Below, piece after piece: positions 6,943 through 54,297 of a stretch of DNA of 54,604 nucleotides. Location of the stretch: UHGV virus genome UHGV-0184235; one strand, 5' to 3'. Position numbers and translations under genes: made by a program. The notes beneath the pieces are model-generated. The model worked only from the letters and a program-made list of their open reading frames with translations. It searched no databases and was not told the DNA's origin. Positions within the stretch are counted from its first letter, which is position 1; each line of letters starts with the position of its first letter. This DNA is from a virus.

Positions 6943-6954
6943 GGGGGAACTGTC

Positions 6955-8064
6955 ATGGAAAATACCAACATTGTTACAGCCGAACAGCAGGCACCAAACA
7001 CAATCTCTGCAAGTAACTCAATTTTCAACGTACAGGCCCTGGGACAGTTGCAGTCTTTCGCCGGGCTGATGGCTCAATCCGTCGTTACCGTGCCCGCGCA
7101 CTTGGCAGGAAAGCCAGCAGATTGCATGGCTATCGTCATGCAAGCCATGCAATGGGGCATGAATCCATATGCAGTTGCGCAAAAGACGCACCTGGTCAAT
7201 GGGCAACTGGGTTACGAAGCACAGCTTGTTAATGCCGTTATCACCAGTTCCAGCGCCATCCATGGCCGCTTCCATTATCGCTACGGTGGTGACTGGGAAC
7301 GTTGCACCAGAACCAAAGAAGTGACCCGCGAGAAAACAGGGAAAAATGGCAAATACACTGTAACGGAACGCGTTCGCGACTGGACTGATGAAGATGAAGC
7401 AGGCCTCTACATCGAGGTCGGGGCAATTCTTCGTGGTGAAAGTGAAATCACTTGGGACAAACCACTCTACCTGTCTCAGGTAGTTACTCGAAATTCGCCG
7501 CTGTGGGTTTCAAAGCCTGACCAGCAAATAGCCTATCTTGGGGTGAAATATTGGGCGCGGTTGTACTGCCCGCATGTGATTCTCGGTGTTTACACACCAG
7601 ATGAGCTTGAGCAACGTACCGAGCGAGAAATCAATCCGGCGCCAGTCCAGCGCATGAGCGTACAGGAAATCACTGGCGAGGTTAGTACCACGACCAGCGC
7701 GCAGGAATCGGCAACTAACATTGACGCCGTTGCCGACGACCTACGCGACCGCATTGACACAGCAAGCTCCGTTGACCAGGCCAAAGCCATCCGCGTGGAT
7801 ATCGAATCGCAGAAAGCATTGCTGGGAACCGCTCTGTATACCGAACTGAAGAATAAGGCTGTGAAGCGCTACTACCAGGTCGATGCGCAGAACAAGGTCG
7901 AGGCTGTGATCAACTCACTTCCAAATCCTGGCGAACCGGAATCCGCAGCGATGTTCGCTAAAGCTGAAAGTGCTCTCAGCACTGCCAAACGTCATTTGGG
8001 CGACGAACTGTATGACCAGTTCCGCATCACCCTGGACGACATGAAACCGGAATACGTGGGCTAA
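6955..8064 (+). CDS. recT: single-strand annealing recombinase of the RecT/Redbeta superfamily (369 aa)
   Basis: It lies immediately downstream of recE. The N-terminal core pattern (QWGMNPYAVAQKTHLVNGQLGYEAQLVNAV) resembles the Bet motif (QYGLNPWTKEIYAFP...VVGVDGW). Confidence 0.6.
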   Translation: MENTNIVTAEQQAPNTISASNSIFNVQALGQLQSFAGLMAQSVVTVPAHLAGKPADCMAIVMQAMQWGMNPYAVAQKTHLVNGQLGYEAQLVNAVITSSSAIHGRFHYRYGGDWERCTRTKEVTREKTGKNGKYTVTERVRDWTDEDEAGLYIEVGAILRGESEITWDKPLYLSQVVTRNSPLWVSKPDQQIAYLGVKYWARLYCPHVILGVYTPDELEQRTEREINPAPVQRMSVQEITGEVSTTTSAQESATNIDAVADDLRDRIDTASSVDQAKAIRVDIESQKALLGTALYTELKNKAVKRYYQVDAQNKVEAVINSLPNPGEPESAAMFAKAESALSTAKRHLGDELYDQFRITLDDMKPEYVG

Positions 8065-8098
8065 GGGAGGCGGGAGGGGTCGCCCTCCCGGTAATGAC

Positions 8099-8443
8099 AT
8101 GAGCAAATCATTAAATGCACGCTGTATTCGCCGCTGGGAAGTCGAATTTAAACCGCTCTGCGATTCGAAAGTAAATCCGTACTGGCGCAAGCGCGACCTG
8201 CGCGGGTATATCCGCGAAGCGGCGCTCACCACTGCTTACAACATGGTTGAGAGCATGGCTGAGAACAACGCCAAATTTGACTATGAAGGCACGACTATTG
8301 GCTGGTCGCCTGAGTTCTCGGCCTGGTATAACGAACGCCGGGAACACTACCTCAAGGAGGCTCGGGAATACCTGAACGAAGACGCCACCAACGAAGAGAT
8401 AGACGAAGAGATCGAGAACGAGCTGGAGGCCTGGAATGACTAA
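8099..8443 (+). CDS. hypothetical protein (114 aa) with an acidic C-terminus
   Basis: Clean ORF preceded by the GGGAGG-GGTCGC-CCTCCC hairpin at 8071-8088. Confidence 0.5.
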   Translation: MSKSLNARCIRRWEVEFKPLCDSKVNPYWRKRDLRGYIREAALTTAYNMVESMAENNAKFDYEGTTIGWSPEFSAWYNERREHYLKEAREYLNEDATNEEIDEEIENELEAWND

Positions 8444-9044
8444 GCGCGGAATGATTTTTAACGGCGAGATGGTGCGCGCCATTCTTGAAGGTCGGAAAAC
8501 GCAGACGCGGCGCCCAGTTAATTCGTCAACTGCTGACCTGCTTGATTTGCAAAAACAATATCCGCATAAGAAATACAACATTGTTTGCCCGTTCGGTCAG
8601 CCAGGTGATTGCCTGTGGGTGCGAGAGACGTTCCAGGGGCCGCTTGTTTCTGAGGAGTTATTCGAAGAATACCGAGCCTATCCTGAAAAGTTCGAGACGC
8701 CGCAATACTGCGAATATGCCGCCGATGGTGGTGCCAAGCCTGAATACTGTGATCTTGACGATAACCTCCGTCATGGCTGGCGCCCATCCATACACATGCC
8801 GCGCTGGGCATCCCGTATTCTGCTGGAAATCACCGACGTGCGGGTTGAGCGGCTGAAGAGTATCAGCGACGGCGATGCGATACGCGAAGGGTGCAGTGCC
8901 ACCGACATGAAAAGTGGCGACTGTGTTGCTGATGTGTTCGCGCGCCTGTGGAAATCCATCTACGGCAAGGAAAGCTGGCAGGCCAATCCCTATGTCTGGG
9001 TAATCGAATTCAGACGGATCGACGGGGGTGACCATGCGTATTGA
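8436..9044 (+). CDS. ASCH-domain protein (202 aa)
   Basis: The N-terminal FNGEMVRAILEGRKTQTRR matches the ASCH beta-barrel signature (ILsGrKTqTrR). Confidence 0.55.
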   Translation: MTKRGMIFNGEMVRAILEGRKTQTRRPVNSSTADLLDLQKQYPHKKYNIVCPFGQPGDCLWVRETFQGPLVSEELFEEYRAYPEKFETPQYCEYAADGGAKPEYCDLDDNLRHGWRPSIHMPRWASRILLEITDVRVERLKSISDGDAIREGCSATDMKSGDCVADVFARLWKSIYGKESWQANPYVWVIEFRRIDGGDHAY

Positions 9045-9306
9045 AGAACTGAAAAAGCTTCCGAAATTATACCGGGTTATCACTGTTGAACTTGACGTAT
9101 TGCGTAACGGGTTCGGGGCTAATTACGGTGTAATTTACGATGTTGATACCGTTGTTAAACGCAAGGTTCGCCGTGTGTTAGATGCCGATGGCTGGCGCTG
9201 GGCAATGGTCCGTGAGCACCGCAATCAAGAGCAATGGGACTACTTCTTTGAGTACGACAAAGAATGCCTTCATGAACTTAATTACACACTTGGCCTAATT
9301 AAGTGA
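9034..9306 (+). CDS. hypothetical protein (about 90 aa)
   Basis: ATG at 9034 with a GGGGGTG SD. It overlaps the ASCH gene stop. Confidence 0.45.
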   Translation: MRIEELKKLPKLYRVITVELDVLRNGFGANYGVIYDVDTVVKRKVRRVLDADGWRWAMVREHRNQEQWDYFFEYDKECLHELNYTLGLIK

Positions 9307-9313
9307 GGTGAAT

Positions 9314-9553
9314 ATGCGATTGATAAACCGCAGCACGCAATCTCCGCTGGCGCGCCGGGCGTGCGATGCAGCACTGGCAAAGCATGTTGAGCTTTACGGG
9401 GAGTTTGGCCGACAGAAAACAAAGACCACTTATACCGTGGCGGTCGACGGCGTGAAGGTGACGGTAGAAGTTGTTAACCGACACAAGAGCTACGTGGCCA
9501 CGGCGATGACAGGTATGCGCCGACTGCGCGCACTGCCAGGGCAGATTGCCTGA
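9314..9553 (+). CDS. hypothetical protein (about 79 aa)
   Basis: GAGGTG SD 7 nt before ATG 9314. Confidence 0.45.
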   Translation: MRLINRSTQSPLARRACDAALAKHVELYGEFGRQKTKTTYTVAVDGVKVTVEVVNRHKSYVATAMTGMRRLRALPGQIA

Positions 9554-9614
9554 TAACGAATTATCAATAATTTTCCCCCGCCTGATACATGATATCAGGC
9601 GTCAAGAGGTACAA

Positions 9615-9887
9615 ATGAAATTAGTAACTCTGACCACCTGGGCAGCGAAGATTTATCCCGACAATCCCCCGGCGCGAGTGACCCTCAGACGCTGGGCGAG
9701 GAACGGAAACATCTACCCGCCCCCCGAGCTTCATGGGCGTGAATACCGCGTTAACCCGGAAGCGTTTTATATCAAGCCCAACAAAGCGGGAAAAGAGCTG
9801 CAACAGCACCATCCCAACGGGCGAACTGGTAAAAAAAGTGCGTTGCTGGAGCAGTTAATAAATGAGTCAAAAAAGATACGACGCTAA
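9615..9887 (+). CDS. xis: excisionase (lambda Xis-like)
   Basis: MKLVTLTTWAAKIYPDNPPARVTLRRWARNGNIYPPPELHGREYRV aligns with lambda Xis (LTLQEW...RWVRE..IFPPP..DGREY). AAGAGG SD. It overlaps the int start. Confidence 0.7.
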   Translation: MKLVTLTTWAAKIYPDNPPARVTLRRWARNGNIYPPPELHGREYRVNPEAFYIKPNKAGKELQQHHPNGRTGKKSALLEQLINESKKIRR

Positions 9888-10941
9888 TCTACCCAAGAAC
9901 CTCACCTATCGTAAAAATGACAGAGCGTTTTACTGGCGTAATCCGCTGACTAAAAAAGAAATTGCGCTGGGGCAAATTTCCCGCAGGGATGCGGTCGCAC
10001 AGGCGATCGAGGCCAACAACTTCATCGCGCAGAATTACACCCCTGTTGCGCTGATTGAAAAACTTAAAGGTCTGGACTCGCTTACTGTCACAAAGTGGAT
10101 CGAGCGCTATGAGGTACTGTTACAGCGTCGTAATCTGTCGGTGAACACATACAAGATTCGTGGCAACCAGTTAGCGACTATACGGGACAAGATGGGCGGA
10201 ATGCTCCTGGCGGAAGTGACCACAAAGCATATTGCTACGTTTCTGGAAACATGGATTGAAGGAGGGAAAAATACTATGGCGGGAGCAATGCGATCTGTCT
10301 TATCAGATATGTTCAGGGAGGCGGTTGTTGAGGGGCATATAACACAGAATCCGGTTGAGCCAACCCGCGCCCCAAAAATCGAGGTTGCGCGTGATCGTCT
10401 GAGACTGGACGTGTATAGAAAAATTCGTACAGCAGCAGAGAAACTGCCGACATGGTTTCCTCTGGCTATGGATCTCGCGTTGATCACTGGTCAGCGTCGC
10501 GAAGATGTTTCCTGCATGCGATTCAGTAATATTATTGATGACCGTCTATATGTAAAACAGATTAAAACGGGGATGAAAATAGCGTTACCGTTGTCGCTCA
10601 GTCTCCCATCCGTCGGCCTGCGCCTCGGAACGGTGGTCGATCGCTGCCGACTTGTGAGCAGGACTGACTATCTGATCAGCGCCGGGGTCAGGAAGAACAG
10701 CCCGGACGGGAGTATTCACCCTGACAGCCTGACGAAAAAGTTTGTCGCTGCCAGGAAATTAACTGACATTGCATTCAGCGAAAACCCGCCGCCGTTTCAT
10801 GAAATCCGCAGCTTGTCCGGGCGACTGTACAAAGATGCCTACGGTGAAGATTTCGCCCAGAAACTGCTGGGGCATACATCAGAAAACACAACAAAAATGT
10901 ATCTCGATGAGCGTGATGAAAAGGCGTATATGATGCTCTGA
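9862..10941 (+). CDS. int: tyrosine integrase (lambda Int family, 359 aa)
   Basis: N-terminal arm-binding domain, core-binding region, and a C-terminal catalytic region with HEIRSL...LLGHTSENTTKMYLD. Confidence 0.9.
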   Translation: MSQKRYDANLPKNLTYRKNDRAFYWRNPLTKKEIALGQISRRDAVAQAIEANNFIAQNYTPVALIEKLKGLDSLTVTKWIERYEVLLQRRNLSVNTYKIRGNQLATIRDKMGGMLLAEVTTKHIATFLETWIEGGKNTMAGAMRSVLSDMFREAVVEGHITQNPVEPTRAPKIEVARDRLRLDVYRKIRTAAEKLPTWFPLAMDLALITGQRREDVSCMRFSNIIDDRLYVKQIKTGMKIALPLSLSLPSVGLRLGTVVDRCRLVSRTDYLISAGVRKNSPDGSIHPDSLTKKFVAARKLTDIAFSENPPPFHEIRSLSGRLYKDAYGEDFAQKLLGHTSENTTKMYLDERDEKAYMML

Positions 10942-11003
10942 TTTTCAGTTTAAAAAATGTTAAATCTAATTTTGTTGTGGTATAAGGGAAAAAGACCGGA
11001 TAC

Positions 11004-11036
11004 GGAAATTCGAGGAAATTTCGAGGAATTTCGAGG
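11004..11036. repeat. three tandem copies of about 11 bp (GGAAATTCGAG / GAAATTTCGAG / GAATTTCGAG), candidate Int arm-type or Xis/IHF binding sites of attP
   Basis: Direct repeats seen in the sequence 60 bp downstream of the int stop, inside an AT-rich noncoding stretch. Confidence 0.4.
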
Positions 11037-11382
11037 GAAGATGCATAATCCTTTGATTTTAAAGGAAAATAAAAAGAGACCGAATACGATTCCTGTTATC
11101 GCCAGCACACAAATAAAACCAATGAATTCAATTAGATAGACACCACGCAGCGCATCTTTTATGCCCAAAAAACATCTTTTCATGTGCTTTTATAATCAAA
11201 TACATGCCACTTTTTCCGTTTTTATTCGGTGATATTTCGGTACGACACTCCATCGAAAGGGTTATCGTTCCACATCGTTGGGGAGCGGTAACACTGTCCA
11301 TGCATAGCACTCTTTGCCAAGAACTGTGCAGATCTTTTTTGGTAAAGTGCGTGGCTAGGAAATTTTTATTATTAGTTTTTTC

Positions 11383-12171
11383 ATGGTAGTCGTAATGAAA
11401 ATAACACGTAAAGAACTACAATTAATGAAAGAAACCACTTCTGATGGTTGCATCATTTATTTGTCTGGACCATCATCGTTAGATACTCCATTGGAGCTAT
11501 TGCGCGCCAAAAGCATCATCAGCGTGAACGGTAGCACAGGCTACTTACTGGAAAACAATATTCCAGTATTTGCATATATTGTCAGTGATGGTTCATTTTA
11601 TGAAAAAAATAAATCACTATTTTTAAAATACTCATCTTATGCCAGATATACTTTTATTAGTAATGACGTTCTCAAACGTGCAAACACTTCAGAAAAAGAA
11701 CAACTACTCAATACATGTTTTGTGTTAAATGATATCTGCAAATCACGGGGTGGGCCGGGAAGGAAAATAAGATACACAATAAAATCGGCAATTAACAGAA
11801 GTGTTTTTATCAAGTGTTCTGCATCAAGGAAAGAAAAGACAATTGCATTTTCCACTGATGTATATCATGGACACTTTGGCAGTGCAACGGTTGCATTTAG
11901 CGCATTACAACTTGCAATATCACTAAAATTCAGAGAAGTGCTTTTTTCAGGTTTAGATCTTAGCGGGGAATGTAAAAGGTTTTATAGCGAAGGTCAACCG
12001 CAACCAACAACCTTACCCACAGACTTTAATTTCATATTGAAATCTTTTGATTTTCTTATGAAAAAATATCGCGGAAACATTTTCAACCTTTCCAGTAGAA
12101 CTGCTATACCCTATGAAGTAATCCCCTTTGCGAGTGCAGCGGAAATAATGAATCAAACTACACTGGTATAA
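11383..12171 (+). CDS. AT-rich moron protein (262 aa), a putative CstII/DUF115(Maf)-like nucleotide-sugar glycosyltransferase
   Basis: Visibly low GC. The motif CIIYLSGPSSLD...ISVNGSTGY resembles the CstII VIIAGNGPSL...VFRCNQFY motif, and a later FSGLDLSG resembles YLSGIDFY. The family assignment is from memory. Confidence 0.45.
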   Translation: MVVVMKITRKELQLMKETTSDGCIIYLSGPSSLDTPLELLRAKSIISVNGSTGYLLENNIPVFAYIVSDGSFYEKNKSLFLKYSSYARYTFISNDVLKRANTSEKEQLLNTCFVLNDICKSRGGPGRKIRYTIKSAINRSVFIKCSASRKEKTIAFSTDVYHGHFGSATVAFSALQLAISLKFREVLFSGLDLSGECKRFYSEGQPQPTTLPTDFNFILKSFDFLMKKYRGNIFNLSSRTAIPYEVIPFASAAEIMNQTTLV

Positions 12172-12564
12172 CATAAGCACCTTGCGATAGACGTGATAAA
12201 TGCATCTACCGCTCCCCTCCATAGTATTTTCCGCGAATTTGAATCCAGTGTTCTGATATTATTTTTCATAATAATATCAGTCAGTAATAGAAGTATTTAT
12301 TAGATACTAACAGCAACCAGTCGTTTTGCCTATTCGCCATGCGTTGGATATCGAGCGGCCGGAGAAACCACTGTATGCACTCCCATGCGGCATGGTTACT
12401 GCTCTATTAATTCTACTGATGAAAACCTTGCCAACTCGATTGGAGATTTCTAGTTATTGACGCAAACACAGAACATGCAATCACATACGCTTCTTTACAT
12501 TTGGTGGTTTTTATGAATACTACTAGATGATTATGCTAACACGATGAGATCCAACGGATGAAAT

Positions 12565-12714
12565 ATGAATATATTTGAACAAACTCCACCAAATTGCAGG
12601 CGTTATGGCCTAGCTGCATTTATTGGGTTAATCGCTGGTACCGTATCAGCATTTGTTAAATGGGGCGCTGAAGCACCTTTGCCCCTCCCCAACCAGACTT
12701 CCCTGAGTGCTTGA
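12565..12714 (+). pseudogene. 49-codon fragment resembling the N-terminus of inner-membrane protein YagU (DUF1440), likely a host-gene 5' segment at the attP core
   Basis: The translation [40 protein letters not shown] matches my recollection of the E. coli YagU start ([40 protein letters not shown]), then diverges and stops. Confidence 0.4.
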
Positions 12715-12877
12715 GCGCCTAGTAATTGACCGATATGATGTAAAATTTAGTCTCCACACAAGGTCAACCTTATCGTATCTACTCCGTATTATGTATGTCG
12801 ATCAAGTACCGCGTTAGTGCTACACTTGCACTCTTTCAGAATTCACTGATTTTTCACATGTTAAAGCTATCTATCTC

Positions 12878-13264
12878 ATGGACATAAAACTGTCTGCGGT
12901 CTACCAAAATCAGGCCATTAGATACTGCATTGTCGGCGGTATGAACACGGCAGTCACAGCTTGCGTGATACTTGCCCTTACAGCCTCAGGCTTCGGCTTG
13001 TATGTATCTAATTTTTCTGGCTATGTTGTTGGGATATTGTTCAGTTACGTCCTTAACACATATTTTACTTTCTCGTCAAAGCCATCATTCAGAAGGTTGG
13101 TTAAGTTCATTGTATGTTGTGCAGCCTGCTACGTCATCAATCTCATAGCCATGAAAACAACTATAGCATTTGGTTTTGAAAATAAATATTTAATCCAGCT
13201 GGCAGGGATGTTTTTCTATACAATCTCTGGTTTTTTAATTAATAAACTCTGGGTAATGAAATAA
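12878..13264 (+). CDS. gtrA: GtrA-family flippase (128 aa, 4 TM)
   Basis: Small polytopic membrane protein immediately upstream of gtrB, in a low-GC region. Confidence 0.7.
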   Translation: MDIKLSAVYQNQAIRYCIVGGMNTAVTACVILALTASGFGLYVSNFSGYVVGILFSYVLNTYFTFSSKPSFRRLVKFIVCCAACYVINLIAMKTTIAFGFENKYLIQLAGMFFYTISGFLINKLWVMK

Positions 13265-14214
13265 TGAAAGCGCCTGTTCTTTCCATTGTTGTGCCTTGCT
13301 ATAACGAGCAAGATGTTTTTAGCCTTTGTCTTAATGAGTTATCATCTCGTATGAGTGAAATGAAAGACAAAGGGAAAATAGACAGAGAAAGTCATATAGT
13401 CTTTGTTGATGATGGAAGCAAAGATAATACCTGGCGATTAATAGAAGAAGCATCAAGTGACAGTTGTCTGGTGAAAGGGGTAAAACTTTCACGAAATAAA
13501 GGCCATCAGACTGCATTGATGGCAGGGTTATCATCATGCACTGCATCTGACATTACTGTAAGTATTGATGCTGACTTGCAAGATGACACCGCTGTGATTG
13601 AAAAAATGGTTGACTCCTATCTCTCTGGTCACGACATAGTATACGGAGTAAGGAACGACAGAACCTCAGATAGTTTTTTTAAGAAGTTTACAGCAGAAGC
13701 ATTCTATAAGGTAATGACCAGGCTCGGTGTAAGTCAGGTTGAAAATCATGCTGATTTTAGGCTGTTAAGTCGAAGAGCGCTCAACTCCCTTTTACAGTAT
13801 AAAGAACAAAACCTATATATTCGGGGTCTTATCCCCCTGATCGGATATCCGAGCGATAAAGTGTACTATTCTCGTCATGAGCGAGCAGCCGGAGAATCAA
13901 AGTACCCGCTCAGAAAAATGCTGGCTCTTGCACTTGAAGGAATCACATCGTTTTCGGTAACGCCATTAAGGATCGTAACCGCTTTAGGTTTCATTATTTC
14001 TATACTTTCATCAATTGGAGTTATATATACCCTTGCTCAGTATTTTCTTGGACATACCGTTAGTGGATGGGCGTCGATGATTTTGGCTGTCCTGTTTATA
14101 GGGGGGGTTCAAATGCTTTGCCTTGGTGTAATCGGTGAATATATCGGTAAAATTTATATGGAATCTAAGAAAAGACCAAAATTTTTCATTGAACAGAAGA
14201 AAGGATTTAAGTAA
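13264..14214 (+). CDS. gtrB: bactoprenol glycosyltransferase GtrB (GT2, DPM1-like, with 2 C-terminal TM helices)
   Basis: SIVVPCYNE...VDDGSKDNT...DADLQDD signature with two C-terminal TM helices. Confidence 0.85.
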   Translation: MKAPVLSIVVPCYNEQDVFSLCLNELSSRMSEMKDKGKIDRESHIVFVDDGSKDNTWRLIEEASSDSCLVKGVKLSRNKGHQTALMAGLSSCTASDITVSIDADLQDDTAVIEKMVDSYLSGHDIVYGVRNDRTSDSFFKKFTAEAFYKVMTRLGVSQVENHADFRLLSRRALNSLLQYKEQNLYIRGLIPLIGYPSDKVYYSRHERAAGESKYPLRKMLALALEGITSFSVTPLRIVTALGFIISILSSIGVIYTLAQYFLGHTVSGWASMILAVLFIGGVQMLCLGVIGEYIGKIYMESKKRPKFFIEQKKGFK

Positions 14215-15987
14215 ATGAGATTAAAAAACTTGCAATGCAGCCTTCCTTTTGATCTTGTGTATTTCGCACCAATTTTTTGCGGGATATTTGTAGTCATATC
14301 TTCTAATAAAATATTCAATTTATCACTAACTGACATTATATTATATGTATCTTCGTTTGTAATAGCGATTAGCCTCTACGTCAGGATCGCAATCGGTGCG
14401 AGCACTAAATGCAAATTAGGATATAACTCATTGTTCGTATTTGCCATAAGCATATTGATCATAACTTACGCATTGAGTTTCTATGACTCAAATATGAATA
14501 AGTATTTTAGCTTCAATCCAATTTTTGATGTTGATAATTATAATATTTGGCACAAAGATAGCGCTTACAACCTAGCAATAATTCAAAGCATTATTAACTT
14601 TGGATATCCAAGCATAGGATTAGACGGGCATGCATTGACCACATACCACGTATTAAGTCATTATGTAGATGCATTACTTTTAAAAATATCAGGGTTGCCA
14701 ATATACGAATCCTATGGGTTCTCATCATATGTCAAAGCCGTTTTCCTTATTTGTTCGATATATGTATTTTGCTACCAATATTCTAAGAATATAATATCCT
14801 CATCGGTCGCATTCCTTTTTATTAGCCCTTTTATTGTCGCATCATGGCATGCAATTAACTCTCATGCTCTATGGCTACCAAGCTTCATTCTTGTTTTTTC
14901 TGCGAGATTTACATTTAACTTCCTATACCAGTCCGAGGTTCCAACCTTTAAAAAATATAACATTATTGCAATAATTTCTGCGCTGCTATGTCTGGGTAAA
15001 ATATCAACTGGGCTGGCGTATATCACCATTGTATTTTCAGTAGCCTTTATAAGAGACTTAAAAAGCCTGAAGTTCTATTTTTATGCCGTCACTCTATTAT
15101 TATTTATTGTTTTTTATCAAAAAGTAATAAACTATTCGTATGGCATCCCAGCGGTTTTGGAACTACAAGCACTATCACCAACAGTAATTTACCATCATTT
15201 ATTAAATACCGATATCCGCTACGAGAAATTCTTTATTCCTTTTATCGCCGCAATTATATCACTGAGAATTTGCATCAAATCAGAATTTCTTACAAGGTTG
15301 ATCTTTGGAGTTATTTGTTCTTTTTCCTCAATCTTTGTCATAACCCAAACATTCACCTCATTTAACTGGAGCGATAAATATTATTTCTTCCAGGGGCTTT
15401 ATTCAGTTACAGTTTTGCTTTTTTGCTCTTATATTCTAACATGGGCCAATGCATCGAAAGAAGAAAAAAAAATAAAACATCTCACGTCTTTTGCTCTTAT
15501 TTCACTTCTTTCATTCTTTGTATATCAACCTGTATATTCAATAGCAAGCATTAATGCAAAAAGCATTGTGAGTAAATTTGAATACGTTAAAATAAAATTA
15601 TTCAAACCACATAAAACAGACGTTAACGGGAGTATGTATTCTTTAAAGCAATACGTATATCAAATAAAAGAAGGGAGTCACCTGAACAATAGAGATATAG
15701 CGTTATTCATCCCAAAATCCGTTATTCTAAACCAGGTAATTAAAATAAACGATGGGAATAAAAACTTCCATACCATGAATATCTATGCTGCAACTGGCAT
15801 TCAAATAATAAATGGTTTAATAGGAAATGAGAGGGCCTATGGATTGATTAATTATGGAAAACAATCAGCCCTTAAGGAAAGCATTGATTATAGTTATGAA
15901 TGTTCAAGGTTAGGGGTTAAGGCGATAATCACAGTGGAAAATTACACAGAAAAAAAATATCTATATCACCTGTGTGACGGCCAATAA
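14215..15987 (+). CDS. serotype-specific O-antigen glycosyltransferase (GtrC-type polytopic membrane protein, 590 aa)
   Basis: Large, very hydrophobic, low-GC protein in the third position of a gtr operon. Confidence 0.65.
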   Translation: MRLKNLQCSLPFDLVYFAPIFCGIFVVISSNKIFNLSLTDIILYVSSFVIAISLYVRIAIGASTKCKLGYNSLFVFAISILIITYALSFYDSNMNKYFSFNPIFDVDNYNIWHKDSAYNLAIIQSIINFGYPSIGLDGHALTTYHVLSHYVDALLLKISGLPIYESYGFSSYVKAVFLICSIYVFCYQYSKNIISSSVAFLFISPFIVASWHAINSHALWLPSFILVFSARFTFNFLYQSEVPTFKKYNIIAIISALLCLGKISTGLAYITIVFSVAFIRDLKSLKFYFYAVTLLLFIVFYQKVINYSYGIPAVLELQALSPTVIYHHLLNTDIRYEKFFIPFIAAIISLRICIKSEFLTRLIFGVICSFSSIFVITQTFTSFNWSDKYYFFQGLYSVTVLLFCSYILTWANASKEEKKIKHLTSFALISLLSFFVYQPVYSIASINAKSIVSKFEYVKIKLFKPHKTDVNGSMYSLKQYVYQIKEGSHLNNRDIALFIPKSVILNQVIKINDGNKNFHTMNIYAATGIQIINGLIGNERAYGLINYGKQSALKESIDYSYECSRLGVKAIITVENYTEKKYLYHLCDGQ

Positions 15988-38753: not shown

Positions 38754-40082
38754 TCAGAATGTCGTATCGAGGGTGATGTCGAACGCTGTAGCGTTAACAG
38801 GGAACAGGAACACGATTGGATAACCACCGCCATCATTGCCGTGGTCAAAGCCGCCTTTCTTATCAGGCTCGCCTTTATCGTTATAAACCTGTCGCTCAAG
38901 GCATTGAGTGAATTTCGGGCAGGTTACCGTGTTAACCATCATCCTGCGCTCACCGTAGGTATTGCACAACATAGAGTTAACCGCATTTATCCTGTCCCTT
39001 ACTGCCGGGTTGCTGTCGTTAACCAGCACAGAGAATCCGGCATCATAGAGAAGTGAAATATCGGACTCACTGGCGTTGCTGGACTTCCGGTTTTTCCCCG
39101 AAGCATCAGGGTAAATACTGATTGTGTGTTTCCCTTCTGCATATCGCGTCTTAATCGCTTCAATCATTGCTGGAGTATCGAAAATATCCATAAACTCATC
39201 TACAGCGCGGGGAAGGCCATCACGCAGCACGTATACCACTGCCGCCATTTTCCCCACGTTAAAGTCCATGCCAATATGAAGCGCTTCACCAGGTTTAACG
39301 ATCTCATCAGTATGATTTTTACGGCGATCAAAGCAGTAATAGACAACGCCCTGATAGTTTTCGAACGAGGCTTCATATTCCTGCCTGAACGTTCTGGGAT
39401 CCATTCGCCGGCGAGCTGCTGCCAGCTCTTCAGGCGGGACATTTCCGCCGTCCACAGAAGTATAAAGCCAGCTTTTATGATCAGGTTCTCGGTTGTCCTG
39501 CCCGGCAAGCCATGAGTCATAACAATGGTTGAATCCCTTGGGTGTGCCAATTCGAAGAGCATGCCCGCCTATATACTGCACACCGTTTACGATATACCGA
39601 CATGTCGACAGCATCGGGCGCAATACTTCCTCCCACGCTGCATAGGGGCAATCCGCCCATTCATCCACCAACACGAAAAACAAGCCGGAACCACGCAAAT
39701 CATCGTAGTTATTCAACCCGACGCATCGCATTATGTGGCCGCTTTTGAGTGTGATCGATAATTCGGTCTCGTTCGGCTTCGATGCCCGCCAGTGTGGAGG
39801 TATTGATTGTTTCAGCCTCCGCCAAAAAACACGCTTTGCCTGTTTTTGGGTTGGCGCGCAGTACCAGATTTCATCCTCTACACTGACTTTCCATTTCTGC
39901 GCCAGTCTGGCGGCTCTGCGCATCTCCGCTTTGCCCAGGAATGTTTTACCAAATCGGCGACCACATACAGCATCCCTGAAACGCGCTGAACGCTGCCAGC
40001 CCCAGACGTAAATATTTGCCTGTTTCGGTGTCAGGCTGACGGCATCGCTATTAGAGGATTGGATCATCTGGAGATTCCTCAT
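38754..40082 (-). CDS. terminase large subunit
   Basis: N-terminal ATPase with a Walker A-like GRRFGKT, and a C-terminal nuclease region. Confidence 0.85.
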   Translation of the reverse strand: MRNLQMIQSSNSDAVSLTPKQANIYVWGWQRSARFRDAVCGRRFGKTFLGKAEMRRAARLAQKWKVSVEDEIWYCAPTQKQAKRVFWRRLKQSIPPHWRASKPNETELSITLKSGHIMRCVGLNNYDDLRGSGLFFVLVDEWADCPYAAWEEVLRPMLSTCRYIVNGVQYIGGHALRIGTPKGFNHCYDSWLAGQDNREPDHKSWLYTSVDGGNVPPEELAAARRRMDPRTFRQEYEASFENYQGVVYYCFDRRKNHTDEIVKPGEALHIGMDFNVGKMAAVVYVLRDGLPRAVDEFMDIFDTPAMIEAIKTRYAEGKHTISIYPDASGKNRKSSNASESDISLLYDAGFSVLVNDSNPAVRDRINAVNSMLCNTYGERRMMVNTVTCPKFTQCLERQVYNDKGEPDKKGGFDHGNDGGGYPIVFLFPVNATAFDITLDTTF

Positions 40083-41986: not shown

Positions 41987-42495
41987 GCCAGCGCGCTTTC
42001 CTGGTCGCGACGGGAAACCTGCCCAAAGCAGTTATTGGAACGGATACGGCAATCTTTTCCGCCGTCGAATATCCAGCGTCTAATTTCAGCACAGGCCCCT
42101 TTGCGGTCTCCTGCATTCAGCTTACGAAAAAATCCAGATGGCAGGCATTTACCAGAGCCGATGTTGTACGGGCAGAACGACGCGATCCCCGCTTTCTGTG
42201 GCTCTGTCAGCGGCACTTTGATGTTTCGGTTTACCCACGCCAGCGCCTTATTGCGCTCGATGGCATTAACCTGGTCGCATTTCTGCTGTGTCAGCTTCAT
42301 ACCCTGCACCACCGGTTTACCATCAACCATTGTGGCGCCACGGCAAATCGTCCAGATCCCGCCACCATCTTTGTACGCTGTCAGACTGTTACCCTCTTTC
42401 TCATTCAGGAACTGATCGAGAATAACCGACGCTGGCGCACCGGCGAGAACCAGTGCCAGAACGGCGGCACTAAGTTTTGCTCTCCACCCCATCAT
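41965..42495 (-). CDS. SAR endolysin (T4-lysozyme-like GH24 with a signal-anchor-release N-terminus)
   Basis: N-terminal [19 protein letters not shown] hydrophobic segment followed by E...D...T catalytic spacing ([20 protein letters not shown]). Confidence 0.8.
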
Positions 42496-42797
42496 TCACC
42501 AGCCTTAGTAAGCGCGTCGGCAACAACACTTACAGCCGCCGGGCGTTCAGCAATGGGTTTATCACTGATGCCATCCAGGTAATCGCGGATCATGGCTGTG
42601 CGCTTCTCGTCTTCTTTACGTTTACGACGGGCATCAATTCGGCCATTTACGTAAGAGATCAGAGAAATAAGCAGGCCGACAGCACCAAAGAACATGTAGA
42701 CCATATCCTGTGTGGTAAAACCCAATGCTGCCGCGAGGGTTCCAACCCACGCGAAAAACTGCGTGAAAATATTCCCTGAGTGATCGTTCATTCTCAT
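42492..42797 (-). CDS. holin with an M-R-M dual start
   Basis: Three TM helices. Starts at codons 1 and 3 mirror lambda S107/S105. Confidence 0.7.
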   Translation of the reverse strand: MRMNDHSGNIFTQFFAWVGTLAAALGFTTQDMVYMFFGAVGLLISLISYVNGRIDARRKRKEDEKRTAMIRDYLDGISDKPIAERPAAVSVVADALTKAGE

Positions 42798-43273
42798 GGT
42801 CTCTTACCTCGCGTTTTTCGGAGGCTGTGTGTAAGGGAAAGGCCGCCCGGTGGATTAACGACAAAACACAGAGGAATCGTTCCGAACGGCACAAATAAAA
42901 AACCCGCCAGAAGCGGGAATAGAAGATAAGCGCACGGCTTTAATCGCCCACAATGCGCGGGCTAATTGTCCCAAGGTAGAGGGATTTGATTGTGACACCA
43001 GGGCGCTACCCCTGCTTACTTCCTGCCGCTCTGTTTTGGTATTGGCCGCCAGTAACTGCGGCTCAGTCGATTTACAGGTCTTTGCGTCGACCGGCGCTGC
43101 AACTCGCCTGAGTACGTCACAACGGAAAAAGCATTGGCACGTTTATATTCCCTCCCTGTTGGCTAACACCAATGGGTCCGACGTCAACGTGCAATGCTTT
43201 TTCCTGTTGTGTGCTCCGTTTCGTGGAGCTGACGCCATCGGAATCACACCGACAGAATCTTCACAGGGATATG

Positions 43274-43349
43274 TGGTGCTGATTGACGGAATCGAACCGC
43301 CGACATCCTGCTTACAAGGTAGTTGCTCTACCTACTGAGCTAAATCAGC
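43274..43349 (-). tRNA. tRNA-Thr(UGU)-like gene with a poorly paired anticodon stem
   Basis: 76 nt with encoded CCA, a good acceptor, D arm and T arm (GGCGG-TTCGATT-CCGTC), and anticodon loop CTTGTAA. It is very similar to my recollection of E. coli thrU, but only 3 of 5 anticodon-stem pairs form. Confidence 0.45.
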
Positions 43350-43350
43350 C

Positions 43351-43380
43351 AATAAAAAAGCCCCGGCAATCACCGAGGCT
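43351..43380 (-). terminator. intrinsic terminator immediately upstream of the tRNA-like gene
   Basis: GCCUCGG-UGAUUG-CCGGGGC followed by UUUUUUAUU. Confidence 0.4.
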
Positions 43381-43530
43381 TACATTGTTGCCGGTTACCG
43401 CTCCGGCGCGATCAGCAAAAGCTATCGCGGTATCAGATTGTGGTCCTGCCTATGTGAGCTTTTGCGGACGGCTGGAACATGTAGGCTCCGCAACACTCCC
43501 CGCACTTTGTCTTATTGGCGTCGGGAATCC

Positions 43531-43565
43531 ATAAAAGAAAACCCCGCCGAGGCGAGGTTTTTTTT
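43531..43565 (-). terminator. tR'-like terminator downstream of Q
   Basis: CCUCGC-CUCG-GCGGGG followed by UUUUCUUUU. Confidence 0.5.
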
Positions 43566-43608
43566 AATTCTTGTAACGTCACAGGCGTAATAACCCATCG
43601 TTGGAATC

Positions 43609-43637
43609 AGGTTAGCCATTTTCCGTTAATTTTGCAA
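43609..43637 (-). promoter_or_regulatory. candidate late promoter pR' (TTGCAA-17-TAACCT)
   Basis: It lies between the Q stop and the tR'-like terminator. The match to consensus is weak. Confidence 0.25.
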
Positions 43638-43654
43638 TAGCTAAATTATGCTGG

Positions 43655-44452
43655 TCATCGGGTCACGTTTCCCAGAACCTTTTCTGCATATGATTCCTCA
43701 ATATGGCAATGCTCCACCAGCCGATCGAAAAACTGTTTATAGTTGTACCGCCATACCATTTCCGTTATCCCCAGCGCTTTAAAAATCTCGGTATCTTTCA
43801 GGCGTGGGTAACCTCTTCCCTTGCATCTCGGGCATTTTTTATAAACCGGCACGCCCTGCAACTCTGATTTTTTCTTATCGAGAATTTCTCCGCGCCCCCG
43901 GCAACGGCATTCGTTTTTCACATGGCCTTTACCATCACATGTTTTACACACGACGCGCACTTGCTCACGTACTGATTTCCACACCTCCCAGTCAGAAGGA
44001 GAAATGCCTTTCGTATCTTTTACCCATTTTGGTGGCTTACCATCCGGGTAAGTAACCTTGTTCGTGAAAACCTCAGCATCAATAAATTTTGCGCCATGAC
44101 AGCTACCGCACGCCACCAGGCTTGCAGCACTGAGGGAATAATCGCGGAAAACATACCGAGCCAGAATACCGAGAAATTTTGAGCGTTCACTTTCTTCCAT
44201 TTTCCGCAGCGATCCGTGCCGTTCTGCGCGCTGTTCTGCCAGTTTCTTGATGTAGGCAATAATATTGTCTGAAGATAAAACCCCGGCTTTTGCCAGATAC
44301 AATTCAATACCCACCGCTGCTTTTGCGGAAAGTAGCCCGAGGGATGCCATTACGTCAGTAATAGTCAACGTATCTGCTGAAATACCGCATGGAACAGCGC
44401 CGGGCATCATGGATTTAGGCGAAAAATATTTTGGTAAGGACTCAAGCTTCAT
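43655..44452 (-). CDS. late antiterminator Q (phage-21/82-type Q with a zinc finger)
   Basis: CKTCDGKGHVKNECRCRGRGE...CPRCKGRGY cysteine clusters. The start is taken at MKLESLPKY. Confidence 0.75.
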   Translation of the reverse strand: MKLESLPKYFSPKSMMPGAVPCGISADTLTITDVMASLGLLSAKAAVGIELYLAKAGVLSSDNIIAYIKKLAEQRAERHGSLRKMEESERSKFLGILARYVFRDYSLSAASLVACGSCHGAKFIDAEVFTNKVTYPDGKPPKWVKDTKGISPSDWEVWKSVREQVRVVCKTCDGKGHVKNECRCRGRGEILDKKKSELQGVPVYKKCPRCKGRGYPRLKDTEIFKALGITEMVWRYNYKQFFDRLVEHCHIEESYAEKVLGNVTR

Positions 44453-44584: not shown

Positions 44585-44941
44585 TCATGTGGCATCCTCG
44601 ATAATGATCCGCCCTCTCTCGCCCCAGATTTTTGTTACCCGGCCATCCCAGACATGGCTATCCTCGTCAAACACTGCATCCAGCAGCGCCTTTTCCAGGT
44701 TGTCTTTGTCTGGCTTCTGCTGATGTGGCTGCCCGGCGTGTTGGGCTCGCTTCTTCTTGCTCCAGCTTTGGGGCATGGGGATAACGAATGTGATGTGATA
44801 ACCGGATTCCGGTAACTCGATGCCCAGCAGACGAACCTGCGCTTTGTATGACCAGTACGCCGCTGTCGCTGGCCGTTTGTGCCATCTGTCGCGCTGAGTC
44901 ATTCTGGGCTTGCCGATCGGCGTGATGTCGTAGACTGTCAT
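44585..44941 (-). CDS. rusA: RusA Holliday junction resolvase
   Basis: The DKDNLEKALLDAV motif matches the RusA DLDNLQKAAFDAL motif. Confidence 0.8.
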   Translation of the reverse strand: MTVYDITPIGKPRMTQRDRWHKRPATAAYWSYKAQVRLLGIELPESGYHITFVIPMPQSWSKKKRAQHAGQPHQQKPDKDNLEKALLDAVFDEDSHVWDGRVTKIWGERGRIIIEDAT

Positions 44942-51949: not shown

Positions 51950-52645
51950 TTAAATCAGCCCAGCGTCTTTACGCTGCTTGTACTTCGCCATTAACATCTC
52001 GGCTGGTGTTGGCCCACGATCCTGCGAAGGCGCAGCTATAGCGCGACGAACGGGTGGTATAGGCTTGCCAGCAAGAGTGCGTTTTTCCCAATCATGCAGG
52101 ATGTCGCCAGCGGCCCGGATAAGTTCCTTTTCGCTGAGTTGCCCCTCCGTTCCACGACGGCGCAACTCCAGGCAGACGTGGTAATACAGCGGGTTTTTAT
52201 CCCTCCAGGGGAACTGCTCACTCGTCGGATAGCGAAAAACAAGTTTCCGCCAGCGCCAGTATTCGCTCATGATGTCGTCCACACTGACTCCCAGCGCGCC
52301 ACTCCCTTCACGGCACCACGAAATAAACTGCCCCGGCGACGGCCAGAACGGTGACTGACTGGATCGGGCTTTCTGCATTCCGGCGGAAAGTTGCTCACGG
52401 GAGGTGATGCCTGATTCAGCGAAAGCGGCGATCCATTGCTGCTTTGCAACGCGAATATCATCGCCAGTACGTAGGTTCGTCTGAGTGGATGCCGGAAATA
52501 CCTGCATGAGATTTTCAAAAAGCATATCCACCAGCTTTTCAGCGTCACTGTTAACAACCTTACGGCCGTCGTAAGAATCTCCAGCCATGCGCGATAGCAT
52601 TTCGCTGTCGCGATTCTGAATTGCACGATAAAGATCCGGGGTCAT
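51950..52645 (-). CDS. lambda P-like replicative helicase loader
   Basis: PFWPSPGQFISWCREG matches lambda P PFLPSPGQFVAWCREE. The length is about 231 aa against 233 aa for lambda P. An ATGA overlap joins it to the O-like stop. Confidence 0.8.
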   Translation of the reverse strand: MTPDLYRAIQNRDSEMLSRMAGDSYDGRKVVNSDAEKLVDMLFENLMQVFPASTQTNLRTGDDIRVAKQQWIAAFAESGITSREQLSAGMQKARSSQSPFWPSPGQFISWCREGSGALGVSVDDIMSEYWRWRKLVFRYPTSEQFPWRDKNPLYYHVCLELRRRGTEGQLSEKELIRAAGDILHDWEKRTLAGKPIPPVRRAIAAPSQDRGPTPAEMLMAKYKQRKDAGLI

Positions 52646-53640
52646 AAAAATTTCTCCCATGCTTCAGCACTGTTCCAGTGCGGGCCAGTTTCGGATTTGC
52701 TTGCGCTGACATCTGCGCGTGGCTTGCGGGTAGTGTCTTCACGGTGAAGGGTTAACGTGTCCCACTTGGCACGGAGCTTTGCGGGGGAGAGAATATTTTT
52801 GTACCAGAACGAGTCTTTGCAGGCCCATCTGAACAACTCACAAATCTCTTTGTGGGTGCGTCCGTCCAGCTGGCGCATCAGGCGTATGTCATTCGCCCAG
52901 CCAGCCATGTTTGGTTTTTTCAGGGATGGTTTGGTGATGTCACGCAGTGCCAACATCCACTCTGCGCAACGGAGATCGTCAGATGTTCCCCACTTGTCAC
53001 CTTTCGGAGTCTGGACTGCTGCATCAGGAACAACTTTGGAAATTCTCTGACGTACATTAAATACGTTAGTATTTAATATATATTGTTCATGATGTGCGCT
53101 TGTTTGTGCGGATGTATGTGCGCCTTCATGTGCGCAACCTCCCGACAAACCCGCGCCGTGACTGGCCTCGCCATGTGCGGATGTATGTGCGCTTTCATGT
53201 GCGGAAGTTTGTGCGGGCAAATTGTCCATTTTTTGAGCATATTCGGCATAATTTGAGATCGTGATCACACGCCCTCTTTGCCGCTCCCCCTCAATGGAAA
53301 TCATCCCTTCGCGCACAAAAAACGTCAGCATTCTCTCAACAGCATCACGGCTTGTTGGGTTGCCTTTTCTGTCACGTAGTTTCAGGCCCAGATCGGCCGC
53401 CGTGGTCACCAGTTGTCCGGTTTGTAGCGGCCATTGGCGACCTTTAAAGCTCGCTGTGTATGGCTGGCTGGCAGCGCCCAAAAGCAGGTTATCCCACAAC
53501 GTACGCAGGTAAACATCTTCTGACCAGGGCTGCTTAAGTACACTCCGGTACAACGGGATGAATCCGGTCTTCTGGTTTTCCATCCGGTTGCTCCTGACGG
53601 CGGTACGCGCCGCAAAATCGGCGTAGGCGACATTCGACAT
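52642..53640 (-). CDS. lambda O-like replication initiator
   Basis: It lies immediately upstream of the P-like gene. Internal tandem AH(T/E)S tetrapeptide repeats are encoded by 12-bp DNA repeats. GGGAGG SD. Confidence 0.7.
   Translation of the reverse strand: MSNVAYADFAARTAVRSNRMENQKTGFIPLYRSVLKQPWSEDVYLRTLWDNLLLGAASQPYTASFKGRQWPLQTGQLVTTAADLGLKLRDRKGNPTSRDAVERMLTFFVREGMISIEGERQRGRVITISNYAEYAQKMDNLPAQTSAHESAHTSAHGEASHGAGLSGGCAHEGAHTSAQTSAHHEQYILNTNVFNVRQRISKVVPDAAVQTPKGDKWGTSDDLRCAEWMLALRDITKPSLKKPNMAGWANDIRLMRQLDGRTHKEICELFRWACKDSFWYKNILSPAKLRAKWDTLTLHREDTTRKPRADVSASKSETGPHWNSAEAWEKFL
53040..53215. repeat. putative replication origin inside the O-like gene, made of two arrays of four 12-bp-phased TGTGCG iterons with a flanking AT-rich stretch
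   Basis: TGTGCG occurs at 53093, 53105, 53117, 53129 and at 53174, 53186, 53198, 53210. The AT-rich segment 53040-53090 lies downstream on the coding strand, as in lambda ori. Confidence 0.55.
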
Positions 53641-53754
53641 AGCTATGCCTCCCTTGCCTGGTGTTTTGAAAAACTCTTTGTCATAATGACCTCGTGATTT
53701 CTGCCTGGAATTACACCGAAGGCCGTCTGTGTTGGCGCACAGCGGTCTTCACCC

Positions 53755-54297
53755 TCACATGACACCCGGCGCTATGGCCGCGATACCACTCAGAACCTGA
53801 ACGACAGCATCACCCGGCAACATATTCAGCAGATGCTCAATCCCTTCCCTGACCTCTTTCACCAGCTGATGCTTTGGCGCATTCAGCATTACGGCCTGTT
53901 TCGCCTCGCTGATTTCCTTCTCCATCGCTGCAAAACGCGTCATGAAACAATCCTGTCCGATAAGACGCCCACGAAATTCCAGCGGTAAAACAGCCAGAAT
54001 CGCCGGAGTCAACTGGCGGATGTTTTCGCGCGCATATCCGGTGTCGCTGTCCAGCCAGCGGAAAAGCTTCTGCCGCTTACGGCTCAGGTCGTCAGGAAAA
54101 TCCAGCCCGGCGCCGCCCTGCCGTTCCCATTCTTCAACGATGATCCCGGCAACTACGTCCTGGTTGTCCAGCGATGCCGACCACGCACGAACGGCAGCCC
54201 GAATCTGGTCATGCTTATCCGCCGGATCAGGCTGATTGCGATTTATCATCGTGTCCGGAGGAAACCCGGTATTTTGTTGAAATGAAATTGAATGCAC
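53755..54297 (-). CDS. YdaT-family protein (occupying the cII position)
   Basis: LTPAILAVLPLEFRGRL matches my memory of YdaT LIPAILAILPRELRHRL. GTG start with a GAGGG SD. Confidence 0.65.
   Translation of the reverse strand: MHSISFQQNTGFPPDTMINRNQPDPADKHDQIRAAVRAWSASLDNQDVVAGIIVEEWERQGGAGLDFPDDLSRKRQKLFRWLDSDTGYARENIRQLTPAILAVLPLEFRGRLIGQDCFMTRFAAMEKEISEAKQAVMLNAPKHQLVKEVREGIEHLLNMLPGDAVVQVLSGIAAIAPGVM

Follow-up and report, generated by a model that had tools for sequence, protein, structure and literature searches.

A tRNA-Thr(UGU) gene with an imperfect anticodon stem in the late-operon leader of a lambda-like phage of Citrobacter koseri

The window analysed here is the whole 54.6-kb stretch (54,604 nucleotides) of the virus genome UHGV-0184235, and this report concerns the 857-bp gap between the gene for the late-gene antiterminator Q, which ends at 43655, and the holin-position gene, which starts at 42797. 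Within the gap lie a predicted late promoter, three intrinsic terminators and a tRNA-Thr(UGU) gene with an imperfect anticodon stem. All relevant genes of the locus are on the minus strand, and the coordinates of the features are listed in Table 1. Such a locus, in which the late leader of a lambdoid phage carries a tRNA gene as cargo, is of a known kind. A first-pass annotation of the same DNA had described about 475 bp free of open reading frames (ORFs) between Q and the holin, and this holds: the distance from the tRNA end to the holin start is 476 bp, and the longest coding-strand ORF in the Q-holin gap of the ORF list is 49 aa. Hidden protein genes in the gap were considered and rejected, because the 49-aa ORF crosses a terminator and two further ORFs, of 100 and 83 aa, are antisense to the tRNA.

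Table 1. Features of the Q-holin gap and its two flanking genes in the window.
Feature	Coordinates	Strand	Basis
Q, late-gene antiterminator, 265 aa, lambda-Q homologue with CXXCXGXG zinc-finger insert	43655..44452	-	PF03589 Antiterm, E = 8e-50
Predicted late promoter PR': -35 TTGCAA 43637-43632, spacer 17 nt, -10 TAACCT 43614-43609	43609..43637	-	lambda alignment
AACGAT, inferred transcription start and sigma-dependent pause element, then GGGTTA as in lambda	43597..43602	-	lambda alignment
Terminator 1 (tR' equivalent): A run, 10-bp stem 43561-43538, T run	43530..43566	-	terminator scan
Terminator 2: 10-bp stem 43381-43358 and TTTTTTATTG	43350..43381	-	terminator scan; also in SPN3UB
450-bp block: tRNA, 3' flank, long hairpin, terminator-3 stem; absent from SPN3UB	42906..43355	.	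BLAST against L003
tRNA-Thr(UGU) with encoded CCA	43274..43349 (43349-43274)	-	ARAGORN, Rfam
Conserved tRNA 3' flank, 62 nt	43212..43273	-	about 10 other tRNA-Thr loci, 75-87% identity
T-arm-like stretch GUCGGUGUGAUUCCGAU (relatives: GCCGGUGCGAUUCCGGC)	43253-43237	-	direct repeat with the tRNA T arm
Small hairpin GCUCCACGAAACGGAGC	43229-43213	-	conserved in about 10 tRNA-Thr loci
Long imperfect hairpin, arms CACAACAGGAAAAAGCAUUG... / ...CAAUGCUUUUUCCGUUGUG, loop 42 nt	43118..43211	-	inverted repeats
Conserved module tail including terminator 3 (6-bp stem 42917-42903 and T run)	42894..42986	-	terminator scan
Holin-position gene, 101 aa, opens the lysis cassette	42492..42797	-	ORF list; UniRef name

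ARAGORN detected a single tRNA in the entire window, a tRNA-Thr with the anticodon tgt (43316-43314), and the same gene matched the Rfam family RF00005 over its full length with a score of 64.2 bits (gathering score 29, E = 3e-13). The first-pass annotation had allowed for rejection of the gene by tRNA predictors; both programs accept it. No non-tRNA Rfam family reached its gathering score in the region 42400-44000, all being far below. Direct reading showed 7 of 7 pairs in the acceptor stem, 4 of 4 in the D stem and 5 of 5 (one of them G-U) in the T stem, a GTTCGATTC-type T loop, and an anticodon loop of 7 nt with U33 and A37, so that the intact acceptor and T arms and the encoded CCA noticed earlier are real features of the gene. 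The threonine identity elements, which we take to be G1-C72, C2-G71, G35 and U36 together with A73 and CCA, are all present. The anticodon stem (43323-43319 / 43311-43307) reads ACUAC/GCAGG; A27.G43 and A30.C40 are non-standard and unpaired, which leaves three of the five standard pairs, exactly the count given by the first-pass annotation, and the gene falls short of a 5-bp stem at this place.

The gap lies directly downstream of Q and upstream of the lysis cassette, and it carries a pause-bearing predicted promoter with an intrinsic terminator nearby. The PR' sequence aligns column for column with lambda PR' (TTGACT / TAAATT), and the same sequence is present in the Salmonella phage SPN3UB; it is absent from the listing of a stricter consensus promoter scan. 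In lambda, the AACGATGGGTTA block holds the start site and the sigma-dependent pause needed by Q, and this invariant block is common to the window and lambda at the same distance from the -10 element. Terminator 1 is located about 40 nt downstream of the inferred start, where lambda and phage 21 have tR', and 8 nt separate the end of terminator 2 from the tRNA. The three terminators of the first-pass annotation were all recovered as minus-strand stems followed by T runs, and 7 terminator-like sites were found in the 2.3-kb region versus 2.9 +/- 1.6 in shuffled sequences. An own promoter for the tRNA was rejected, since a scan of the gap found no sigma-70-like site on the coding strand and none was seen by eye between the terminators.

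The lambda late leader shares with the window the promoter and pause layout, the Q homologue, the early terminator, the ORF-poor leader and the long hairpin described below, and differs in having no tRNA. The Q-S spacing of lambda is 677 bp and is annotated with just one doubtful 64-codon ORF. Because the lambda leader is built alike, an ORF-free stretch with several terminators is expected and not odd, and judged by its layout the 857-bp interval is an ordinary lambda-type late-operon leader. Phage 21 (OL657228) shows the same order of Q, PR', start, pause element, terminator, tRNA-Asn, tRNA-Thr (tRNA-Thr21, 39671-39746) and S21 holin. A leader RNA of about 70 nt (43531-43602, minus strand), containing an A run and a GC hairpin and ending in a U tail, is predicted between PR' and terminator 1, versus about 194 nt for the terminated leader RNA of lambda. 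It would be the counterpart of the 6S RNA of lambda and of the small RNA StxS, which binds Hfq, and in the lysogen it could act as a small RNA. Lambdoid phages in general make such short RNAs between PR' and tR' (PMC7547250).

To place the tRNA among its relatives, a family of about 80 copies was gathered by pattern scans from 75 viral contigs, 2 bacterial genomes and several phage and E. coli records. The nearest upstream ORF encodes a Q protein, belonging to one of three unrelated Pfam Q families, at 50 of 78 loci, DUF1133 at 11 and a methylase at 12, and the nearest downstream ORF often encodes a holin, of several families; in about 20 copies other than that of the window a terminator T run stands directly 5' of the tRNA. 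An alignment of 22 different sequences, T4-like copies and E. coli thrU among them, has 97.8% of its stem cells paired and compensatory change at 10 pairs. Since none of 500 shuffles reached these pairing and covariation values, the family is under tRNA-type selection. The regulatory tRNA-like RNA offered by the first-pass annotation as one possibility is unsupported, as the other tRNA features are intact and the family shows strong compensatory covariation.

The window tRNA belongs to the canonical prophage and P1 trnT type, which occupies the same slot, often directly behind a terminator, and has the perfect five-pair stem CCUGC/GCAGG with CUG and CAG intact in 75 of 80 copies. It is identical to an otherwise canonical copy at 73 of 76 positions and differs from it by G26A, C27A and G30A, that is, by the allele-specific bases A26 (43324), A27 (43323) and A30 (43320). 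It is the sole member of the family with two unpaired anticodon-stem positions. It matches a T4-like tRNA-Thr at 71 of 76 positions and the host-type E. coli thrU, which it resembles much less, at 62. The family differs from the T4-like tRNA-Thr solely within the anticodon arm and variable region, and the anticodon arm of P1 trnT (L220) is the prophage consensus arm; the likeness to the T4-like L004 and L089 and to P1 points to one tRNA gene exchanged among virulent, lambdoid and P1-type phages.

Intermediates were sought by a scan for a base other than G at position 30. One contig (L097) has G30A alone (GCCTAC) in a tRNA that is otherwise intact, and a second (L096) has G26A together with G30A (ACCTAC) and shares its flanks with the window; a further copy (L342) carries C40U. 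With L097 and L096 as intermediates, the window allele seems to stand last in a stepwise series. Stepwise mutation is a likelier origin of A26 and A27 than gene conversion from host thrU or a T4-like tRNA, because L096 combines A26 with C27. Elsewhere the window allele was found solely through exact-protein look-ups; the assembly ERZ28589622 of the European Nucleotide Archive (ENA) has the identical 857 bp including AACTAC, and is possibly not independent of the source of the window.

Two of the positions changed in the window allele, 27 and 30, are those of a published nuclease rule. The P2 Old nuclease cuts tRNA-ThrU after the C in a paired CNG motif, C28-N-G30 / C40-N-G42 (PMC12445682, NAR 2025). 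In an Old-rescue screen, phage tRNA-Thr(UGU) was the sole class of phage tRNA that was enriched and rescued cells; the tRNA-Thr21 of phage 21 also rescued cells and resists P2 Old. For the T-even tRNA to resist, the CNG motif had to be altered (G30C/C40G) and the 27-43 pair lost (U43A) at the same time; either change alone had no effect (PMC12445682).

The 27-43 pair is as a rule lacking in the two phage tRNA families to which these resistant tRNAs belong. T4-like copies have the stem ACUCA/UGAGA or ACUCA/UGAGG, mismatched as A27.A43 or A27.G43, and a 27.43 mismatch is present in all four T4-type copies sampled. The tRNA-Thr of phage 21 has the stem GUCGC/GCGAA with G27.A43 (GenBank OL657228), and among the matches listed this mismatch is kept in 119 of 121 phage-21-type copies. 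The phage-21-type tRNA-Thr(UGU) is very common, being present in at least 120 viral contigs (L222-L301 and further), with an A/G polymorphism at position 26. As the mismatch is fixed in one family and found in every sampled copy of the other, two families of phage tRNA-Thr normally function with this pair 'broken'. By analogy, the 'broken' stem of the window tRNA is most likely the recently described hallmark of nuclease-resistant phage tRNA-Thr, attained here through different substitutions.

The window tRNA is phage-encoded, has the UGU anticodon and A37, and has lost the 27-43 pair as A27.G43, as in L004. Relative to the family consensus, its allele appears to have gained one change of each required kind, C27A and G30A. 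The T-even tRNA-Thr (tRNA-Thr6 of PMC12445682; L004, L089) is 70-71/76 identical to it, with the differences confined to positions 30-46 in the anticodon stem and variable region, and shares A26, A27 and the 27.43 mismatch; two-factor resistance to Old was shown experimentally for this type. It differs in having a C-G pair at 30-40 (CUC/GAG) where the window has A.C, and in lying in the tRNA array of a virulent phage. Like the window tRNA, tRNA-Thr21 is a tRNA-Thr(UGU) without a 27-43 pair, but it is just 55/76 identical, is preceded by tRNA-Asn, has four intact pairs and has both CNG motifs changed by a pair swap (C28U/G42A); moreover, the mismatch is family-wide in the phage-21 type and confined to a single allele in the window's family. 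Close homologues of Old (68-81% identity) are found in Citrobacter, Klebsiella and other enterobacteria, and in the search for P2 Old homologues in sequenced phages P2 itself alone matched.

The context of the tRNA was compared with the collinear phage SPN3UB (L003), which has the same Q, PR' and terminators 1 and 2 at 90-96% identity. Counted from 43654 on the minus strand, gap positions 6-299 match L003 2501-2790 at 96% and positions 750-831 match 2784-2865; the two L003 matches overlap by 7 nt, and the junctions of the 450-bp block fall inside the T runs of terminators 2 and 3. By this comparison the block is mobile. As in a moron, it is an insertion that a collinear phage lacks, with a terminator of its own at the end; a promoter of its own was not found. 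Its tail has 82% identity to L096, where it directly follows a tRNA remnant. The first-pass annotation had regarded the space between Q and the lysis genes as a cargo slot, and its relatives agree: in sister prophages with near-identical Q or identical holin (L085, L086, L093, L095) the slot holds HSP20, a reversed PipA, a DNA methylase or a 106-aa ORF, and two close Q relatives (P0001, P0002) carry PipA and HSP20 cargo without a tRNA. The Q-holin slot is a busy cargo site. In Shiga toxin (Stx) phages the same slot, between Q/tR' and stx, holds different tRNAs, ileZ-argN-argO. A separate promoter between tR' and these tRNAs appears to drive them in an Stx2 phage (PMC7547250), and no counterpart of it is evident in the window.

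Downstream of the tRNA, the T-arm-like stretch and the small hairpin in the conserved flank may be the remnant of a second tRNA. The region 43273-42895 folds with z = -4.77. The arms of the long hairpin are nearly identical to those of a hairpin just after tR' in lambda (lambda 44788-44862; L083 989-1063), and the hairpin was found in at least 119 viral contigs with 84 distinct hypervariable loops of 35-65 nt or longer. It is about 19 bp in length, with the near-invariant arms CACAACAGGuAAGAGCAUUG / CAGUGCUCUUUCCGUUGUG, a conserved bulged A and a conserved U.U mismatch, and pairing is kept at the free positions of the arms. In several contigs a tRNA gene begins exactly at the 3' end of the hairpin, and in several contigs genes for tRNA-Arg(UCU) and tRNA-Met(CAU) adjoin it. 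No Rfam family covers it in the window region or the lambda leader, which were both scanned. RNase III sites were reportedly mapped in the lambda late transcript in a 1988 study by Daniels et al., and we suspect that the hairpin is an RNase III site of the late transcript. One viral contig (L123) has six tRNA genes upstream of the same hairpin; one of them, at 9535-9610, has the anticodon CUA and is labelled 'tRNA-Pyl' by ARAGORN, and it would be of the amber-suppressor type.

The exact Q sequence is named Citrobacter koseri, is annotated as 265 aa in public assemblies and is recorded on 210 contigs. Q is 27% identical to lambda Q (E = 2e-28); its insert relative to lambda Q is about 58 aa, and the CXXCXGXG repeats of the insert match the DnaJ zinc finger weakly (PF00684, 26.5 bits, under the cut-off). 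The 101-aa holin-position protein has no Pfam match, and its exact sequence, recorded on 405 contigs, is a 'Holin' of Citrobacter koseri in UniRef. The start of its gene, Met-Arg-Met (42789-42797, minus strand), is a dual-start motif as in lambda S (Met-Lys-Met) and S21, which suggests a holin/antiholin pair. It is followed by a lysozyme and then a DUF2514 spanin (Pfam), and this gene neighbourhood is common to all 24-25 contigs read via Q, holin and spanin look-ups. In two further regions, 3976-15987 on the plus strand and 52642-54297 on the minus strand, the window encodes RecE (3976-6942), RecT (6955-8064), an integrase (9862-10941), a family-2 glycosyltransferase (13264-14214), a replication protein O and a YdaT-like protein. 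It has the look of a single complete lambdoid genome in circularly permuted form, and going by the exact protein matches the phage is a lambda-like temperate phage of C. koseri.

The reading we favour, which is argued by analogy and which we put at about an even chance, is that the gene encodes a Q-dependent replacement tRNA-Thr with a nuclease-escape-type stem. In the lysogen, PR' transcripts would stop at tR', giving only the short leader RNA, and the tRNA would be silent. Upon induction, Q-modified RNA polymerase would read through all three terminators; the tRNA would be made within the late transcript, excised by the host tRNA-processing enzymes, and be available when the ACA-rich late genes are translated. 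There it would replace the host tRNA-Thr(UGU) after an OLD-type nuclease has removed the anticodon arm of the latter, in the manner of tRNA-Thr21 and the T-even tRNA-Thr. The C27A change would remove the 27-43 pair and shorten the stem, and G30A would turn the C28-U29-G30 motif into CUA and unpair C40. More tentatively, and at somewhat less than an even chance, the AACUAC allele may be a selected escape variant that arose stepwise (G30A as in L097, G26A and G30A as in L096, then C27A) from a family that looks Old-sensitive; the mid-stem A.C together with the lost 27-43 pair would be a third independent route to resistance, the nuclease could be P2 Old-like or a new Citrobacter enzyme, and the tRNA would still decode ACA. 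If so, the locus would show an arms race in progress between resident prophages.

Several observations weigh against this replacement reading. Resistance of the window allele to Old is argued purely by analogy, and the fit to the tested tRNAs is incomplete: the 5' motif is changed from CUG to CUA and C40 is unpaired while the 3' CAG stays intact, versus a pair swap on both strands in the tested resistant tRNAs, which moreover keep 30-40 paired where the A.C mismatch of the window leaves three standard pairs. Because 75 of the 80 family copies, as well as P1 trnT, keep the 5-bp stem with CUG/CAG, selection for Old resistance is not apparent in the family as a whole. Among the best 120 bacterial matches no Old homologue is named C. 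koseri. The allele had no match in the JGI metagenome contigs, and the pattern scan found it in none of 76 IMG/VR contigs and neither of the 2 matched species-representative genomes. In ViennaRNA predictions an alternative fold that arises through G30A (-24.3 kcal/mol) is favoured over the cloverleaf (-17.8 kcal/mol) by 6.5 kcal/mol, and in the canonical and T4-type copies the cloverleaf is the minimum-energy fold; the functional E. coli thrU also misses the cloverleaf minimum, by a smaller margin. In each of the nearest module relatives of the window, L096 and L006, the 3' strand of the acceptor stem has lost 1 nt; ARAGORN rejects the tRNA of L096 but still calls a shifted 75-nt tRNA-Thr in L006.

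Much of this also fits decay, and the first-pass annotation had indeed named a decaying cargo site. On that account a once-functional cargo tRNA in a C. koseri prophage has received three damaging substitutions and matches the Old signature by coincidence. Predictors still recognise the gene, but its product would fold or decode poorly; as the tRNA would be silent in the lysogen, selection on it would be weak. The broken sister copies L096 and L006, the less stable cloverleaf, the singular pair of unpaired stem positions and the absence of the allele from the scanned IMG/VR and JGI metagenomes all agree with it, all three substitutions are changes of G or C to A, and the T-arm-like remnant just downstream suggests an eroded tRNA array. 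Yet at the other 73 positions, among them those of the acceptor, D and T arms, U33 and A37 as well as the discriminator base and the CCA, the gene matches an intact copy. In the lineage with both G26A and G30A, conservation is far higher in the tRNA than in its flank (window versus L096: 72/76 positions of the tRNA and 48/63 of the adjoining flank, P = 1.6e-5), a contrast that may be inflated by mosaic recombination. The 27.43 mismatch is conserved in the phage-21 family and present in all sampled T4-type copies, and by a post-hoc estimate three random substitutions in 76 nt would place one at 27/43 and one at 28/30/40/42 with a probability of about 0.008. We consider decay possible but rather unlikely, and rank it below the replacement reading.

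A plain codon-supply tRNA, which would give extra ACA decoding in late genes with neutral stem mismatches and no link to a nuclease, is less probable still, and we regard it as unlikely. The position of the gene ties its expression to late transcription, ACA makes up 25.5% of the threonine codons in late genes versus 21% in early genes, and about 13-15% in enterobacterial hosts; that most family copies retain the Old-sensitive CUG/CAG 5-bp stem also agrees with it. Such a role leaves unexplained why the sole changes fall on the two Old-resistance determinants, and the enrichment of phage tRNA-Thr(UGU) as the sole class in the Old-rescue screen argues for a defence-related role (PMC12445682). 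Nor does a non-decoding tRNA-like RNA, acting as a late regulatory RNA, a nuclease decoy or a processing signal, seem at all probable: the predicted minimum-energy fold is not the cloverleaf and tRNAs abut processing-type hairpins in several late leaders, but the threonine identity elements are intact, the covariation of the family is of tRNA type, and only a tRNA reaches the Rfam threshold in the region. Least probable of all is that the anticodon-stem changes are errors of sequencing or assembly. In the collections scanned by pattern the allele is a singleton, but against an error stand the identical 857 bp of ERZ28589622, possibly not an independent record, and the intermediates GCCTAC and ACCTAC in unrelated contigs.

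In either case, ORF-free DNA with three terminators is normal for this type of phage and needs no special explanation, and should the replacement reading prove wrong, what remains is an ordinary late leader that carries a decaying tRNA. If it is right, the window allele would be a natural example of the resistance rule described for P2 Old in 2025, reached by point mutation in a third, separate family of phage tRNA-Thr. Imperfect anticodon stems in phage tRNAs should then not be taken by default as the mark of a pseudogene.

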